In this document: positions 41,236 to 47,836 of the stretch, piece by piece
How the letters are laid out: each line of letters opens with the position of its first letter
How positions within the stretch are numbered: position 1 is the first letter of the stretch
NCBI GenBank assembly: GCA_965205265.1
Contig: CBDBGH010000003.1
Location: 768,001 to 832,000 of the forward strand
Direction: 5' to 3'
DNA length: 64,000 nt
DNA from: Alphaproteobacteria bacterium
GTDB lineage: Bacteria > Pseudomonadota > Alphaproteobacteria > Bin95
The notes under the pieces: generated by a model
What the model saw: only the letters and a program-made list of their open reading frames with translations
Database searches by the model: none
What the model was told of the DNA's origin: nothing
Made by a program: the position numbers and the translations under genes

Positions 41236-42077
41236 CAGCCGTATTTCGGCTTGAAGCTCGCCAGCAGGTCCGACGTGTCCCCCGCCCGGTGCGGGTTCAT
41301 CATGCCGACGGTGTGGTAGCCGCAATCCACATGATGCACCTCGCCGGTGACGCCGGCGCTCATCGGGCTGAGCAGATAGAGGGCGGACTGGCCGATCTGC
41401 TCCAGGGTGACATTGGCCTGCAGCGGCGAGTTCAACTCGTTCCACCTCAGGATGAAACGGAAATCGCCGATCCCGGACGCGGCGAGGGTCTTCACCGGCC
41501 CGGCCGATATGGCGTTGACGCGGATGCCGTCATTGCCGAAATCGGCCGCCATGTAGCGCACGCTCGCTTCCAGCGCGGCCTTGGCGACGCCCATGACGTT
41601 GTAGTGCGGCATCACCTGCTCGGCGCCGTAATAGGTGAGGGTCAGCATCGCCCCGCCCGGCTCCATCAGCGCCGAGGCCCGGCGGGCGAGGTCCGTGAAG
41701 GAGAAGCAGGAGATGTCGAGCGACATGCGGAAGTTCTCGCGCGTCGTATCGACATAGCGGCCCTTGAGTTGGTCCTTGTCGGAAAAGGCGATGGCGTGGA
41801 CGACGAAATCGAGCCGGCCCCATTCGGCCGCGAGCGTCTCGAACAGGGCGTACATGCTGGCGTCGTCGGCGACATCGGCCGGCAGCACCAGCGCCGCGCC
41901 CAGCGACTCGGCGAGCGGGCGCACGCGCTTGACAAGCTGCTCCGTCTGGTAGGTGACGGCGAGTTCGGCGCCGCTCCCCGCCAGCGCCTGCGCGATCCCC
42001 CAGGCTATGGAGCGGTCGTTCGCCATGCCCATGATGAGCCCGCGCTTGCCGGTCATGGCGGCCGATGATGCGGTCAT
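41235..42077 (-). CDS. fabI: Enoyl-ACP reductase
   Basis: [38 protein letters not shown]. Confidence 0.96.
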
Positions 42078-42102
42078 GGCGTTCTCCGGGGTCGGGTGAG
42101 GC

Positions 42103-42771
42103 TCAGCTTTCGCCCCCGGTTGCGACCAGACGCCAATTCGGGTCGGGCGACCGCGTGTCCCGGGCGAAGGTCCACACGTCGGTGATCTCCTCGATGGCGT
42201 TGGTCGCGCCGGAGAGCGTCTGGCCCTCGGAATCGCGCAGCACGCCGACCTGCTCCGAGACGAAACGGACCGTCGCCCAGGCCTCATGGCCGTCCAGCCC
42301 GGCATCGGTGAGCTCGGCTTCCTTGATGCCGATCAGCGTCGCCTCGAGGATATGGCCCTTCTCCTCCCGGTCGGCGATGGTGCGCTCGAAATTGCCGAAC
42401 ACCTCGGCGCTGGTCAGCGGCCGGAGCGTGTCCCGGTCGCCGCCGGCAAACGCGTTCACGATCATCTCGAACGCCGCGCGCGCGCCCGAAGCGAACAGCT
42501 CCGGGTCGAAGCTCGCGTCCACGCCCCGGATCTGCCGTATGCCGTCTCCGAGCGGCGTGCCGTCGCTCTCTTCGTCCTCGCCCTTGTTGCGGTCGGGCAG
42601 CGCTATCACATTGTCGTTGGAGTTCGCGTCGCCGGCGGCGTTCGGCTCCGCCTGCGGGGGCGCCTGGTGATGCCCCTGGCGGCGGCCCAGGACGCTGCGC
42701 AGCCGGAAGACGAGGAACGCCGCCACCATGGCGAAGAACAACAGGTCGAAGAACGGAATTCCGCCGTCCAT
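42103..42771 (-). CDS. Tim44/TimA-like adaptor protein
   Basis: FRLRSVLGRR.G, GARAAFEMIV.AF, DVWTFARD...PNW.LVAT; divergent from fxsA. Confidence 0.9.
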   Translation of the reverse strand: MDGGIPFFDLLFFAMVAAFLVFRLRSVLGRRQGHHQAPPQAEPNAAGDANSNDNVIALPDRNKGEDEESDGTPLGDGIRQIRGVDASFDPELFASGARAAFEMIVNAFAGGDRDTLRPLTSAEVFGNFERTIADREEKGHILEATLIGIKEAELTDAGLDGHEAWATVRFVSEQVGVLRDSEGQTLSGATNAIEEITDVWTFARDTRSPDPNWRLVATGGES

Positions 42772-42821
42772 GGGCGCTCACTACCGGCCGTTGCGGCCGA
42801 TCCCTTCACTCGATTGACCAG

Positions 42822-43287
42822 AGATAAGCCCAAGTCTAGGAAAGGGCAAGTATGGCCTTCGCAATCCTTTTGGCGCTGATCGGGGTTCCCCTGGTCGAGA
42901 TCGCCGTTTTCATCGAGGTCGGCGGCTGGATCGGGTTGTGGCCGACGCTCGCCGTGATCGTGCTGACGGCCGTCGTCGGGACCTGGCTGATCCGCGCGCA
43001 GGGGGTGGGCGTATTGATGCGCGCCCGGCGGACGATCGCCGAGGGCGGCGCGCCGATCCGCGAGATGTTCGACGGGGTATGCCTTATCGTGGCGGGCGCC
43101 CTGCTGCTGACGCCGGGCTTCTTCACCGACGCCGCCGGGTTCCTGCTGCTGCTGCCGCCGTTCCGGGACCTCGCAGCAGGATGGGCCTGGCGGCGCTGGG
43201 GCGGCGAGGTCCGCGTCCGGCGGGCCGGGGCCGGCGTCATCGAAGGCGAGTATCGCGACGACACGCCGGGAGAGCCCCGATGATCCT
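42822..43287 (+). repeat. 466-bp direct repeat, copy 1 (long target-site duplication)
   Basis: AGATAAGCCC...GATGATCCT recurs at 45204-45669; ends exactly at the left IS TIR. Confidence 0.95.
42852..43283 (+). CDS. fxsA: FxsA family membrane protein, copy 1
   Basis: PLVEIAVFIEVG..IG...LLLTPGFFTD. Confidence 0.92.
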   Translation: MAFAILLALIGVPLVEIAVFIEVGGWIGLWPTLAVIVLTAVVGTWLIRAQGVGVLMRARRTIAEGGAPIREMFDGVCLIVAGALLLTPGFFTDAAGFLLLLPPFRDLAAGWAWRRWGGEVRVRRAGAGVIEGEYRDDTPGEPR

Positions 43288-43409
43288 CCTGACTTCGACG
43301 GTTGGGCTGACTTCTGACCGATCTCGCGTCTGGAGTTTTCAGTAAAGCCAATGAGTTGGCAGTTGCGGTGCGGTCAAGCTGCGTTGTAGTGCCTAGTAAA
43401 TCTTTGAGA

Positions 43410-43438
43410 CTGTCAATGCCTCCGCCACGCGCTACACT
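43410..43438 (+). promoter_or_regulatory. Putative transposase promoter giving a leaderless mRNA
   Basis: CTGTCA-N17-TACACT, then 6 nt to ATG 43445; no SD. Confidence 0.5.
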
Positions 43439-43444
43439 CCCCCC

Positions 43445-45100
43445 ATGTTCGTGCGCATCAAGACCTCCCCCAACAGCCCGCGACGCTCGGTCCAGATCGT
43501 CGAGGCCGTGCGCGACGGCGGCAAGGTCCGACAGCGCATCGTCCGCCATGTCGGCGTGGCCATGGACGAGGACGAGCTCGAGCGCCTGAGGCAGCTCGGC
43601 GAGTACGTCAAGGCGAAGCTGGAGGACGAGCGTCAGCCGGCATTGTTTGCGCCCGAGAAGATCGCTGAGCAGGCGATCCGTGTCGGCCGCCGGGGGGACG
43701 GCAAGGAGGAACTCCCGGTCGACCTCAAGCAGCTTGAAGAGGAGCAGCGCCTGATCACAGGCATCCACGAGGTCTATGGCGAGATCTACCGGCTGCTGGG
43801 CCTCGACGCGCTGCTGCCGCGCTCGCGCTACCGGGCCTCCCATGACGCGCTGTTCCATGTGGTGATGGCGCGGGTAGCCAACCCCGACAGCAAGCGGGGC
43901 AGCGTGCGCCGGCTCGAGGAGGACTTCGGCGTGAGTCTTCCGCTCGAGAAGGTCTACCGGATGATGGATCAGCTCGACGCGACGGTGATCGAGCGACTGC
44001 GCACGCGCGTCGGCGAGGCGAGCCGGTCGCTGCTGCCGGAGCCGGTCGCGATCCTCTTCTTCGATTGCACCACGCTCTACTTCGAGACGGCCGCCGAGGA
44101 CGAGCTTCGCCAGCACGGCTTCAGCAAGGACGGCAAACACAAGGACTCGCAGGTTCTGCTGGCGCTGATGGTGACGCGCGAAGGGCTGCCGATCAGCTAC
44201 GAGGTCTTCCCCGGCGCCACCTACGAGGGACACAGCATGGTCCCGGTCCTGCAGGACATGCAGCGCCGCCACCAGGTGGAGCGCACGGTATGCGTGGCCG
44301 ACCGGGGCATGCTGAGCGCCGACAACCTCGACGCCATGGACGCCATCGGCGGCGAGTATGTCGTCGGCGCGCGGCTGCGCAAGCTGCCGCTCGCGCTGCT
44401 GGGGCAGGTTCTCGACCCCGGGACCTATGCCCCGCTGGAGGGCTCACAGGACCGCCGGGTCGGCGAGTGGGAGTACAAGGGCCGTCGCCTGATCGTCGTC
44501 TTCTGCCCCCAGCGCGCACGCAAGGACGCGCACGAGCGCCGCCATCAGGTGGAACGCCTGCTCGACAGGCTGGCCCGCAGCGACAATCCCAGGGAACTGC
44601 TCTCCAATCACGGGGCGAAGCGCTTCATCGCCGTCGAGGGCGACGCACGGCTCACGGTGAACCCGGAGAAGATCGCCGAGGCCGCACGATGGGACGGGCT
44701 CACCGGCGTCATCACCAATCTGCGCGACGCGCGCGTCACCGAAGTGATGGCTCACTACCAGGGGCTCTGGCAGGTCGAGGAGAGCTTCCGGATCACCAAA
44801 CACGACCTGAAGATACGTCCCATCTGGCACTGGAACCCGGACCGGATCCGCGCTCACATCGCCATCGCCTTCCTGGCCTTCGCCTGCGTTCGACACCTTG
44901 CGTACCGCGTCGCCATCCAGAAGCGGCGGATGTCCCCGGAGGTCATCCGCTCCGCCCTCGTCCACCGCCAGTGCTCCCTGCTGCGCTGTCGGCAATCGGG
45001 CAACCGCTACGTCATCCCCTCGAAGCCGACACCGGCGGCGGAGCAGATTTACGCAACCATGGGGCTGCCCCTGACGATCACCCCGTATCAACTCGCCTGA
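43445..45100 (+). CDS. IS1634-family DDE transposase
   Basis: 551 aa; MFVRIK..VQIVE..R.GGKVRQR, FFDCTTLYF (D), GFSKDGK, VADRGM (D), YQGLWQVEESFRITK (E), RPIWHW. Confidence 0.93.
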   Translation: MFVRIKTSPNSPRRSVQIVEAVRDGGKVRQRIVRHVGVAMDEDELERLRQLGEYVKAKLEDERQPALFAPEKIAEQAIRVGRRGDGKEELPVDLKQLEEEQRLITGIHEVYGEIYRLLGLDALLPRSRYRASHDALFHVVMARVANPDSKRGSVRRLEEDFGVSLPLEKVYRMMDQLDATVIERLRTRVGEASRSLLPEPVAILFFDCTTLYFETAAEDELRQHGFSKDGKHKDSQVLLALMVTREGLPISYEVFPGATYEGHSMVPVLQDMQRRHQVERTVCVADRGMLSADNLDAMDAIGGEYVVGARLRKLPLALLGQVLDPGTYAPLEGSQDRRVGEWEYKGRRLIVVFCPQRARKDAHERRHQVERLLDRLARSDNPRELLSNHGAKRFIAVEGDARLTVNPEKIAEAARWDGLTGVITNLRDARVTEVMAHYQGLWQVEESFRITKHDLKIRPIWHWNPDRIRAHIAIAFLAFACVRHLAYRVAIQKRRMSPEVIRSALVHRQCSLLRCRQSGNRYVIPSKPTPAAEQIYATMGLPLTITPYQLA

Positions 45101-45166
45101 CCGTCGACGAAGCACGGCTCGAAGAAATGCCGGATGTAGTGCCTAGCCGAAATGAGAACCAGGCAA

Positions 45167-45179
45167 TATCAACTACTTA
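45167..45179 (+). promoter_or_regulatory. IHF consensus site inside the right IS end
   Basis: TATCAACTACTTA matches WATCAANNNNTTR exactly. Confidence 0.6.
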
Positions 45180-45203
45180 TGCGAATCAACCGTCGAAGTC
45201 AGG

Positions 45204-45669
45204 AGATAAGCCCAAGTCTAGGAAAGGGCAAGTATGGCCTTCGCAATCCTTTTGGCGCTGATCGGGGTTCCCCTGGTCGAGATCGCCGTTTTCATCGAGG
45301 TCGGCGGCTGGATCGGGTTGTGGCCGACGCTCGCCGTGATCGTGCTGACGGCCGTCGTCGGGACCTGGCTGATCCGCGCGCAGGGGGTGGGCGTATTGAT
45401 GCGCGCCCGGCGGACGATCGCCGAGGGCGGCGCGCCGATCCGCGAGATGTTCGACGGGGTATGCCTTATCGTGGCGGGCGCCCTGCTGCTGACGCCGGGC
45501 TTCTTCACCGACGCCGCCGGGTTCCTGCTGCTGCTGCCGCCGTTCCGGGACCTCGCAGCAGGATGGGCCTGGCGGCGCTGGGGCGGCGAGGTCCGCGTCC
45601 GGCGGGCCGGGGCCGGCGTCATCGAAGGCGAGTATCGCGACGACACGCCGGGAGAGCCCCGATGATCCT
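45204..45669 (+). repeat. 466-bp direct repeat, copy 2
   Basis: Matches 42822-43287; begins immediately after the right TIR. Confidence 0.95.
45234..45665 (+). CDS. fxsA: FxsA family membrane protein, copy 2
   Basis: Translation identical to 42852-43283. Confidence 0.92.
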   Translation: MAFAILLALIGVPLVEIAVFIEVGGWIGLWPTLAVIVLTAVVGTWLIRAQGVGVLMRARRTIAEGGAPIREMFDGVCLIVAGALLLTPGFFTDAAGFLLLLPPFRDLAAGWAWRRWGGEVRVRRAGAGVIEGEYRDDTPGEPR

Positions 45670-46213
45670 GCTGCGCCACGGCCAGACGCTGTGGAACCTG
45701 CATTACGGCCAGACGCGCATCGATCCGGGCCTTCCCGATCCGGGGCTGACGGAGGAAGGCTGCCGGCAGGCCGAGGCGGCCGCGGCCGCGCTCGCCGGGC
45801 GCGGCATCTCGCTGCTCTTCGCAAGCCCCTACCGGCGCACGCTCGAAACGGCGGCTGCCATTGCCCGGCGCCTCGACGTCCCGATTTCGATAGAGCCGCT
45901 GCTGCGCGAGCGGGCGGGCTTTTCCTGCGATGTCGGGACCCGCGCGGGCATGCTGGCCGGGGCCTGGCCGGACCTCGACTTCTCCGCCCTCGACGAGCAG
46001 TGGTGGTGCGAACTCGGGGAAACGCATGAGCGGGTGCTGGACCGCGCCCGCGCCTTCCGCGCCGCCGTGGCCGAACGCCCGGACCGCGACCGTATCTGCG
46101 CGGTGACCCATTGGGGCGTTATCCGCGCGCTGACCGGCGAGACCGTCGAGAACGGCGCCATCCGCAAGCACGACCCCTCCGGTCCGCTTTCTCCCTTTGC
46201 CGCCCCGTGCTAG
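45662..46213 (+). CDS. Histidine phosphatase (phosphoglycerate mutase superfamily)
   Basis: MILLRHGQT, ASPYRRTLET, VTHWGVIRAL. Confidence 0.9.
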   Translation: MILLRHGQTLWNLHYGQTRIDPGLPDPGLTEEGCRQAEAAAAALAGRGISLLFASPYRRTLETAAAIARRLDVPISIEPLLRERAGFSCDVGTRAGMLAGAWPDLDFSALDEQWWCELGETHERVLDRARAFRAAVAERPDRDRICAVTHWGVIRALTGETVENGAIRKHDPSGPLSPFAAPC

Positions 46214-46223
46214 ACGGGCGGCC

Positions 46224-46736
46224 ATGACCGGGAACGGCGCAAACGGGGCGGCCGACGCGAAGCCGCGGGTGACCATCGGCGCGCAATATCTGAAGGACCT
46301 CTCCTTCGAGAGTCCGAACGCGCCGATGAGCTTCAACGAGCTCGAAACGCGGCCCGAGATCGGCATCGACCTCAATGTCGAGGCGCGCCCCCTGCAAGAC
46401 AACCACTTCGAGGTGCTGCTGCATGTCACGGCGCGGGCGAAGCGCGGCGAGACGGTCCTCTTCCTGGTGGAGCTGTCCTACGCCGCGGTCGCCTCCGTGC
46501 CGCCCCTGCCGGACGAGGTGAGGACCAGGGTGGTCGGGTCCGAGGTGCCGAAGCTGCTGTTCCCCTTCGCCCGTGGCATCATCGCCAATGCGGTGCGTGA
46601 CGGTGGCTTCCCGCCCTTCCTGATCGACCCCATCGACTTCGATGCGCTGTTCGAGCGCGCGGCGGCCGCGCAGGCGGATGGGCGCCGGCAGGAGGCGGGC
46701 GGGCAGGCCGCGCAGGAGGAGGGAGGCGGCGATTAG
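46224..46736 (+). CDS. secB: Protein export chaperone SecB
   Basis: QYLKDLSFESPNAP, LLFPFAR.II...GGFPP..IDPIDF. Confidence 0.95.
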   Translation: MTGNGANGAADAKPRVTIGAQYLKDLSFESPNAPMSFNELETRPEIGIDLNVEARPLQDNHFEVLLHVTARAKRGETVLFLVELSYAAVASVPPLPDEVRTRVVGSEVPKLLFPFARGIIANAVRDGGFPPFLIDPIDFDALFERAAAAQADGRRQEAGGQAAQEEGGGD

Positions 46737-46938
46737 CCGGGACCGCGAATACGCGCCGCCCGAGGCGGAGGAAGCGGAGGTCTGGGGCGACCTGCTGCGG
46801 TCCTTCCTGCGCGGCGCCGCATTGCTGGGGCTGGCTGCGGCCGGCGCCGGCGGCGGGCTCTGGTATCTCTACTACCTGATGAGCACCGGCCGGATGGAGC
46901 ACTTCCCCCTCGTCTGCGGCGCCATCGGCCTGGAGTGA
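46732..46938 (+). CDS. Putative small single-pass membrane protein, possible ATT start
   Basis: GGAGG SD 5 nt before an ATT that overlaps the secB stop; hydrophobic AALLGLAAAGAGGGLWYLYYLM segment; fills the gap to the convergent gene. Confidence 0.45.
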   Translation: MSRDREYAPPEAEEAEVWGDLLRSFLRGAALLGLAAAGAGGGLWYLYYLMSTGRMEHFPLVCGAIGLE

Positions 46939-46942
46939 ACGG

Positions 46943-47836
46943 TCAGCCTCCCGGCAGGAAGGCGAGGAGTTCGGCGAGCAGTTCTTCCGGCGCTTCCTCG
47001 GGGATGAAGTGGCCGCAATCGAGCGCGCGGCCCCGCACGTCGTCGGCGCGGGCGCGCCAGACATCCAGCATGTTCAGCTTCGCCCCGGTCTGCCAGCCGG
47101 GCCGCTTCGGCATGTTGCCGGCCCAGAGCGCCAGCACGGGGCAGGCGAGTTTCCGGCCCCGGTCGGCGGCGTCATGCTCCATGTCGAGCGCGACGGCGCG
47201 GTAGTCGGCGCACATGGCGCGCACCGTTTCCGGGTCGGAAAAGCAGCGCAGATACTCCCCGTAGGCCGCTTCCTCGAAGGCTCCCGGAACCGCGCTCCAC
47301 TGGTCGAGGAAGAAATCCAGGAACAGCTTCGGGCTGGTGGAGAACACCGTCTCGGGAAGCGGCGAAGGCTGGCGCATGAGGTTCCAGTGGAACCACGAGA
47401 ACGCCAGGGAAGCGTCCATGTTCTCGAACGCTTCCAGAGACGGGACCACGTCCAGATTGGTGAAGCTCAGGACCCGCCCCGGATGGTCGAGCGCGAGGCG
47501 GAGCCCGACGCGCACGCCCCGGTCGTGGCCGACGAGGTGGAAGGCCTCGAAGCCGAGCGCCTGCATGACGGCCACCTGGTCGCTCGCGGTTGTGCGCTTG
47601 CAGTAGGTCGTGTGGTCGCCCGGTTCCGGGCGCGGCTTGTCGCTGTCCCCATAGCCGCGCAGGTCCGGGCAGACGACCGTGAACCGTTCCGCCAGGCGGG
47701 GCGCCACCTTGTGCCATTCCGCATGGGTCTGGGGATAGCCGTGCAGCATCAGCAGCGGCGGCCCTTCGCCCCCGTGCACGACATGGATCCCGCACCCTCC
47801 GGCGTCGATCCCGGACCTCTCGAATCCCTCGAACAT
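46943..47836 (-). CDS. Alpha/beta hydrolase, haloacetate dehalogenase-like
   Basis: LHGYPQTH, DLRGYGDS, GHDRGVRV, FHW, CADYRA, CGHF. Confidence 0.85.
   Translation of the reverse strand: MFEGFERSGIDAGGCGIHVVHGGEGPPLLMLHGYPQTHAEWHKVAPRLAERFTVVCPDLRGYGDSDKPRPEPGDHTTYCKRTTASDQVAVMQALGFEAFHLVGHDRGVRVGLRLALDHPGRVLSFTNLDVVPSLEAFENMDASLAFSWFHWNLMRQPSPLPETVFSTSPKLFLDFFLDQWSAVPGAFEEAAYGEYLRCFSDPETVRAMCADYRAVALDMEHDAADRGRKLACPVLALWAGNMPKRPGWQTGAKLNMLDVWRARADDVRGRALDCGHFIPEEAPEELLAELLAFLPGG

Follow-up and report, generated by a model that had tools for sequence, protein, structure and literature searches.

DDE transposition normally yields target duplications of one fixed length, set by the geometry of the transposase complex. 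For the IS1634 family, the norm given in the 2008 family review is an AT-rich duplication of 5-6 bp (PMC2266710), and ISGka5 of Geobacillus kaustophilus produced a 6-bp repeat in the experiment reported for it (PMC8024623). The review names two family exceptions, IS1549 and IS1634, with repeats of 8-514 bp and 'no mechanistic model' (PMC2266710). IS1634 is listed at 60-65 copies per genome (PMC2266710, PMC3053259). We found no newer mechanistic work on the long IS1634/IS1549 repeats in the literature searched. Since these two elements break the rule of fixed-length duplication, a natural data set of such insertions bears on an unexplained mechanism. Here we analyse a further case in a 64,000-nt stretch of an alphaproteobacterial genome (positions 768,001 to 832,000 of contig CBDBGH010000003.1, assembly GCA_965205265.1; hereafter the window). 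An IS1634-family insertion sequence (IS) has very probably transposed recently into an operon of fxsA and a histidine-phosphatase gene, leaving a 466-bp target duplication that holds a second fxsA and the rebuilt phosphatase gene.

The features of the locus are listed below in window coordinates.

42822..43287, 466 bp: left copy of the target duplication, identical to 45204-45669, its right border flush with the left inverted end of the IS
42852..43283, + strand: fxsA copy 1 (143 aa; PF04186 124.7 bits, NF008528 122.4 bits), native upstream region retained
43280..43287, + strand: histidine-phosphatase stub (ATGATCCT), running into the IS as a 21-aa peptide; its translation was compared with the intact gene at 45662
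43288..45203, + strand: IS1634-family insertion sequence, 1916 bp, with 53 identical copies in the genome, 2 with one mismatch and 6 interrupted
43288..43304, + strand: left terminal inverted repeat, 17 nt
43445..45100, + strand: transposase gene, 551 aa (NF033559 341.3 bits, PF01609 54 bits)
45187..45203, - strand: right terminal inverted repeat, 17 nt, last base G in 53/53 copies
45204..45669, 466 bp: right copy of the target duplication, identical to 42822-43287
45234..45665, + strand: fxsA copy 2, immediately after the IS; of its own upstream region only 30 nt are present
45662..46213, + strand: intact histidine-phosphatase gene (183 aa) rebuilt by the duplication (PF00300 His_Phos_1 110 bits, residues 2-160)
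42103-42771, - strand: divergent Tim44/TimA-family gene upstream of the repeat (NF033779 237.9 bits)

The two target-side repeats agree at 466/466 bp, a match far above chance, and each adjoins an IS end exactly. The identical run is in fact one base longer (42821-43287 and 45203-45669, 467 nt, no mismatches). The extra base, a G, is the final base of the IS and stands at that position in all 53 identical copies; at 16 copies the flanking repeat begins only past it. The invariant terminal G thus fixes the partition as a 466-bp repeat and a 1916-bp IS (43288-45203). The inverted ends, 43288-43304 and 45187-45203, form a perfect 17-nt pair; the automated call spanned 19 nt because two flanking bases happen to pair. 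Both FxsA profiles were matched above their cut-offs, which places the duplicated gene in that family. The overlap of the phosphatase ATG with the fxsA stop codon (ATGA) suggests a single operon of the two genes. The phosphatase itself is conserved: 15/15 genomes searched in the same genus carry it at 81-93% identity over residues 1-183 or nearly so. The IS lies 8 nt into the phosphatase gene, of which the left repeat retains only ATGATCCT, and the right repeat restores the full reading frame. A sequence-only reading of the window had proposed this arrangement, with 17-bp inverted repeats abutted exactly by the 466-bp repeats, a 1916-bp IS1634-family element, a landing point 8 nt into the phosphatase gene and two full fxsA copies; the identity of the repeats, the partition and the family profile bear it out.

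The genome comprises 5.70 Mb in 3 contigs with 68% G+C, and all 53 identical 1916-bp copies of the IS are on the 5.46-Mb contig. Further copies include two with one mismatch, five split by an insertion of ~2.8 kb, one split by another copy of the IS, as well as two truncated pieces. Of the 61 two-ended copies, 54 are flanked by a perfect repeat of their own, 5-573 bp long, so that the expectation of the sequence-only reading that other copies would not be restricted to short duplications proved correct. Among the identical copies, 46/53 have such a repeat (6-573 bp; 44 measure 14 bp or more) and 7/53 have none. The eight remaining two-ended copies, that is, the two with one mismatch and the six interrupted ones, have repeats of 5, 11, 151, 161, 161, 187, 215 and 374 bp. 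The copies show no orientation preference relative to replication (25 co-directional, 28 opposite; the cumulative GC skew is without a clean origin or terminus).

To characterize the borders, we read them on the strand that the IS 3' end would attack, which gave 92 half-sites from the 46 repeat-flanked identical copies. Position +1 is A in 71/92 half-sites, position -1 is G in 61/92, and position -2 is A or T in 68/92, against background frequencies of ~16% for A and ~34% for G. These bases are present also at the far border of the left repeat, remote from any IS end, and hence belong to the target. As the same half-site (W-G^A) occurs at both borders, the transposase chose both of them; a host process that fixed one border at random would not yield equal half-sites on the two sides. 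The borders are on opposite strands at a variable distance, with a polarity that always yields a duplication. Around the cut sites (±20 nt), the DNA is slightly richer in A+T than the chromosome at large (G+C 0.61 versus 0.68).

The median repeat length is 136 bp in this genome (n = 46) and 138 bp for related elements in other assemblies (n = 51). Both samples are compatible with an exponential or a log-normal shape. Lengths below 30 bp are rare (8% of 97), and repeats of 5-8 bp account for 3/54 in the genome. The distribution is smooth and continuous, and the 5-6 bp usual for the family form no more than its lower edge. The repeat lengths showed no significant periodicity for periods from 5 to 160 bp (the best being 127.5 bp, at p = 0.385), nor was there a helical period of 9.5-12 bp in 108 lengths (p = 0.76). 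Clustering of lengths is weak and not significant (p = 0.073), and we do not claim a group at 198-205 bp (6/46 lengths) as a real cluster; three lengths fall at 567-573 bp.

Scanning one genome per species, we recovered 77 related loci in 13 other assemblies, with transposases 50-99% identical. The taxa given in the record titles are Alphaproteobacteria, Paracoccaceae, Candidatus Poriferihabitaceae, Pseudohongiella, Pseudomonadales, Gammaproteobacteria and Chloroflexota. These relatives share the conserved end motif CCYGACTTCGA, which was used to place the element ends; both ends were located in 71/77 loci. Perfect flanking repeats of 16-1318 bp were found at 51/71 of these copies, in 9/13 assemblies. 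This count is a lower bound: one locus (L089), for example, has a 609-bp repeat at 96.9% identity by BLAST that scores 0 by exact match. Position +1 is again A, in 76/102 half-sites. The longest repeats, 1309 and 1318 bp, exceed the 8-514 bp range published for IS1634/IS1549 in the family review (PMC2266710).

The transposase matches the NCBIfam model NF033559 'IS1634 family transposase' with 341.3 bits against a cut-off of 100, residues 28-542 aligning to model positions 1-482 of 483, in agreement with the family proposed from the sequence alone. It also matches the Pfam DDE domain DDE_Tnp_1 (PF01609; 54 bits, cut-off 23). D207, D286 and E445 are invariant among 7 homologues with identity down to 50% and, judging by their motif context, form the putative catalytic triad. 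The motif Y438-x2-L441-x3-E445-x6-K452 corresponds to YREK with L in place of R, and all four residues are invariant in the 7-sequence alignment. In the family description, the YREK arginine is usually absent, the length is 1500-2000 bp and the ends read C-----YT (De Palmenaer et al. 2008, PMC2266710); the element has 1916 bp and perfect 17-nt inverted ends, and starts CCTGACTT. It departs from typical members in its duplications, which are not 5-6 bp and AT-rich but 5-573 bp with a median of about 140. In its behaviour, with repeats of very different length (6-573 bp) at 46/53 identical copies, it matches instead the long-repeat exceptions. The IS DNA had no match in a plasmid collection, and the exact-protein cluster of the transposase (237 members) contains none with an informative name.

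Among the closest known systems is IS1634 of Mycoplasma mycoides subsp. mycoides SC (Vilei et al. 1999, as cited in PMC2266710), which belongs to the same family by the transposase model, has many copies and makes long direct repeats that differ in length from copy to copy; the host here is of a different phylum and has 68% G+C. IS1549 of Mycobacterium smegmatis (Plikaytis et al. 1998, as cited in PMC2266710) is likewise of the same family and makes long direct repeats on insertion, again in a different host. ISGka5, as described in PMC8024623, shares the family, a single DDE transposase gene and a similar size. Unlike ISGka5 with its 6 bp and the typical members with 5-6 AT-rich bp (PMC8024623, PMC2266710), the element rarely makes repeats in the range of 5-8 bp. 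Long variable repeats are thus already published for IS1634 and IS1549, and our element adds to a known rare kind without a new principle. Its value is in the size and cleanliness of the data set (54 exactly bounded events here and 51 in related elements) and in the shared half-site. A length distribution, a half-site at both borders and an apparently very active element are thereby available for tests of mechanism.

We considered whether the same architecture could arise without long target duplications. Two ordinary insertions 466 bp apart on sister chromosomes, followed by unequal IS-IS recombination, would also leave repeat-IS-repeat, and IS-IS recombination does occur in this chromosome. 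The repeat-less copies at 4892940 and 5202993, in opposite orientation, have reciprocally exchanged flanks (100 and 172 bp), and this swap (4892940-4894855 / 5202993-5204908) fits the signature of a ~310-kb inversion through IS-IS recombination. Two other repeat-less copies share a one-sided match, the left flank of 2317705 with the right flank of 4290172 over 76 bp, which fits such recombination as well; flank exchange leaves 3 of the 7 repeat-less copies without explanation. However, a two-insertion history would require two close hits in the same orientation plus a crossover at 54/61 sites. It would also predict a 5-6-bp duplication at the outer borders, which no copy has, and the repeat lengths grade smoothly upward from 5 bp as a single distribution. 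We therefore regard this history as very unlikely.

The structure might also be an artefact of assembly, produced when co-occurring filled and empty alleles, or sequences wrongly joined at a repeat of more than 50 copies, were collapsed into repeat-IS-repeat. The IS is indeed highly repeated, and the read support comes from contigs, none of which bridges the repeat-IS joint by a rule of 31 letters on each side. We examined Logan contigs from four runs on 42000-45190, a stretch with one repeat copy, in which the empty allele is not visible, having no joint of its own. In runs X1 and X2, from two studies (with X1 perhaps the source sample), one long contig covers the Tim44 flank and the repeat as far as 43287. 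At the last 30 nt of the repeat the graph forks, one branch continuing into the IS and the other into the phosphatase gene (loose end 43291). The depths of the flank, the IS path and the phosphatase path are 34.7, 28.5 and 24.6 in X1 and 3.8, 2.4 and 4.0 in X2. In a mixture of alleles, the two path depths would sum to the flank depth. Each branch is instead near the flank depth, which fits a duplication in every cell better than a mixture, although depths taken from contigs are imprecise and the hint is weak. IS depth relative to flank depth is ~50 in X1 and ~44 in X2, in agreement with the copy count. Moreover, an artefact would need to recur at 54 sites, always exact at the IS ends and at W-G^A half-sites, and to recur again in 9 other assemblies. 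This makes it extremely unlikely.

Another run, X7, yields a 467-nt contig equal to 42821-43287, which agrees with a two-copy repeat but has a depth of just 2. Stretches that lack coverage in X5 and X7 are uninformative. In the same run, contigs break or branch within the IS at 43784/43790 (window 43784-43813), and IS depth is 2-7x the repeat depth. X7 may derive from a strain with fewer or variant IS copies.

The empty site is present in relatives. We retrieved nine loci with the phosphatase protein, of which the ninth (L037) begins at a contig end and was not counted. In all 8 spanning loci, which come from other species of the genus, 41800-43291 and 45203-46700 align collinearly on one stretch (identity 80-96%) with an overlap of ~471 nt. 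This overlap implies a single fxsA and no IS in those 8 loci, as the sequence-only reading had anticipated for relatives. Together with the genome-wide repeats and the shared half-site, this shows the repeat at the fxsA site to be a real target duplication. Its recency, also proposed at the outset, accords with the data: the absence of mismatches in the repeat and the 53 identical IS copies make the insertion look recent. An older tandem duplication of the fxsA region, with the IS later entering its junction, has practically no standing, given the single copy in 8/8 related species with no IS-less duplication in the 8 loci examined, a repeat with 0 mismatches, the same architecture at unrelated sites and nothing specific in its favour.

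Several observations nevertheless weigh against a recent transposition with long target duplication. The Logan contigs are not single-molecule reads, and none of them reaches 31 letters beyond the repeat-IS joint in both directions. Two other long-repeat sites (L064 and L060) are without an empty-site comparison, as their regions are not conserved in three relatives. Among the related copies, 20/71 lack an exact repeat of at least 6 bp, part of which the motif-based end calls may account for. In two species of the same genus (G005 and G001), the lone related copies, at 89% and 85% DNA identity, are not flanked by any repeat within 1.5 kb.

How two chosen borders come to lie so far apart can be outlined from general DDE chemistry. 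At this locus, one IS end very probably became attached 30 nt before fxsA and the other 8 nt inside the phosphatase gene; the two joints are on opposite strands and 466 bp apart. The 3'-OH of each IS end (...CAGG-3') would attack the phosphodiester 5' of the A in a loosely defined W-G^A half-site, and the target 3' ends thereby exposed (...WG) would prime host repair synthesis over gaps of 5-573 nt. The spacing of the half-sites would not be set by the transposase complex, given the range of 5-573 bp here and up to ~1.3 kb in relatives, and the absence of helical phasing in the lengths speaks against a rigid loop bridged by protein. We infer, rather than observe, the order of the chemical steps, the gap filling and the reason for the loose spacing. 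Speculatively, a whole proteobacterial clade of IS1634-family elements might perform two spatially uncoupled strand transfers, each by the transposase at a W-G^A half-site, on opposite strands and 5 to >1300 bp apart. In such a 'sliding second cut', the first nick would prime strand-displacement synthesis by the host, and the second transfer would follow it. Strand-displacement synthesis before the second transfer would explain the constant polarity of the duplication. We consider this extension doubtful; if true, it would be an undescribed mode of DDE transposition and would explain the 25-year-old IS1634/IS1549 puzzle.

For the genes at the insertion site, the duplication has mixed consequences. 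The sequence-only reading held that the interrupted gene is spared, which is right for the reading frame, but only 30 nt before the fxsA ATG were copied with it. With the repeat starting there, the downstream fxsA-phosphatase pair is severed from everything further upstream. A consensus scan of 42600-45800 found neither a sigma-70-like promoter nor a terminator-like site and so locates no native promoter and no outward IS promoter, and an Rfam scan of 41500-47000 found nothing. As the transposase gene runs in the same direction with no terminator-like site after it, the rebuilt pair probably depends on read-through from the IS for its expression.

We then assessed the effect on genes at all 46 repeat-flanked sites, using crude, GC3-filtered calls of open reading frames that missed the 8-nt phosphatase overlap of the window itself, so the counts are rough. 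By these calls, 27/46 repeats are intergenic and the IS end is inside a called gene at 19/46 sites. At 10/19 of these sites the gene extends across the entire repeat and is disrupted; at the remaining 9/19, an intact gene copy persists owing to the repeat. A whole called gene inside the repeat was found at 1/46 sites, the fxsA site. The idea of the element as a gene-duplicating device therefore holds for fxsA but describes an exception, with 10/46 insertions still breaking a repeat-spanning gene. Long duplications can be seen to soften the mutational cost of insertion, since a gene survives unless it spans the entire repeat. The long perfect repeats could also later allow precise deletion of the IS, and the suggested precise excision through recombination between them is plausible.

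Some minor features of the genome were noted alongside. A segment of ~500 bp beside another IS copy (L064:320-835, G000:C3 ~125450-125965) has dozens of matches per genome in three relatives (68-88% identity); to judge by these matches, it is a dispersed repeat. Neither of the small contigs carries a full IS copy, and on the 43-kb contig two mutually identical stretches weakly match the C-terminal third of the IS1634-family model (G000:C2:14210-14752 and 42509-43051; 83 bits, below the cut-off). At G000:C3:4596309-4600231, the IS is inserted in its own copy with duplication of ~91-93 bp of IS sequence (positions 119-211), and the host copy has its own 215-bp repeat. The five copies split by ~2.8 kb are located at G000:C3:690261-694973, 2133841-2138553, 2221835-2226546, 4216736-4221452 and 5027366-5032078. 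Their IS sequence overlaps by 6-13 bp at the break, which points to another mobile element that repeatedly enters IS copies and makes short duplications.

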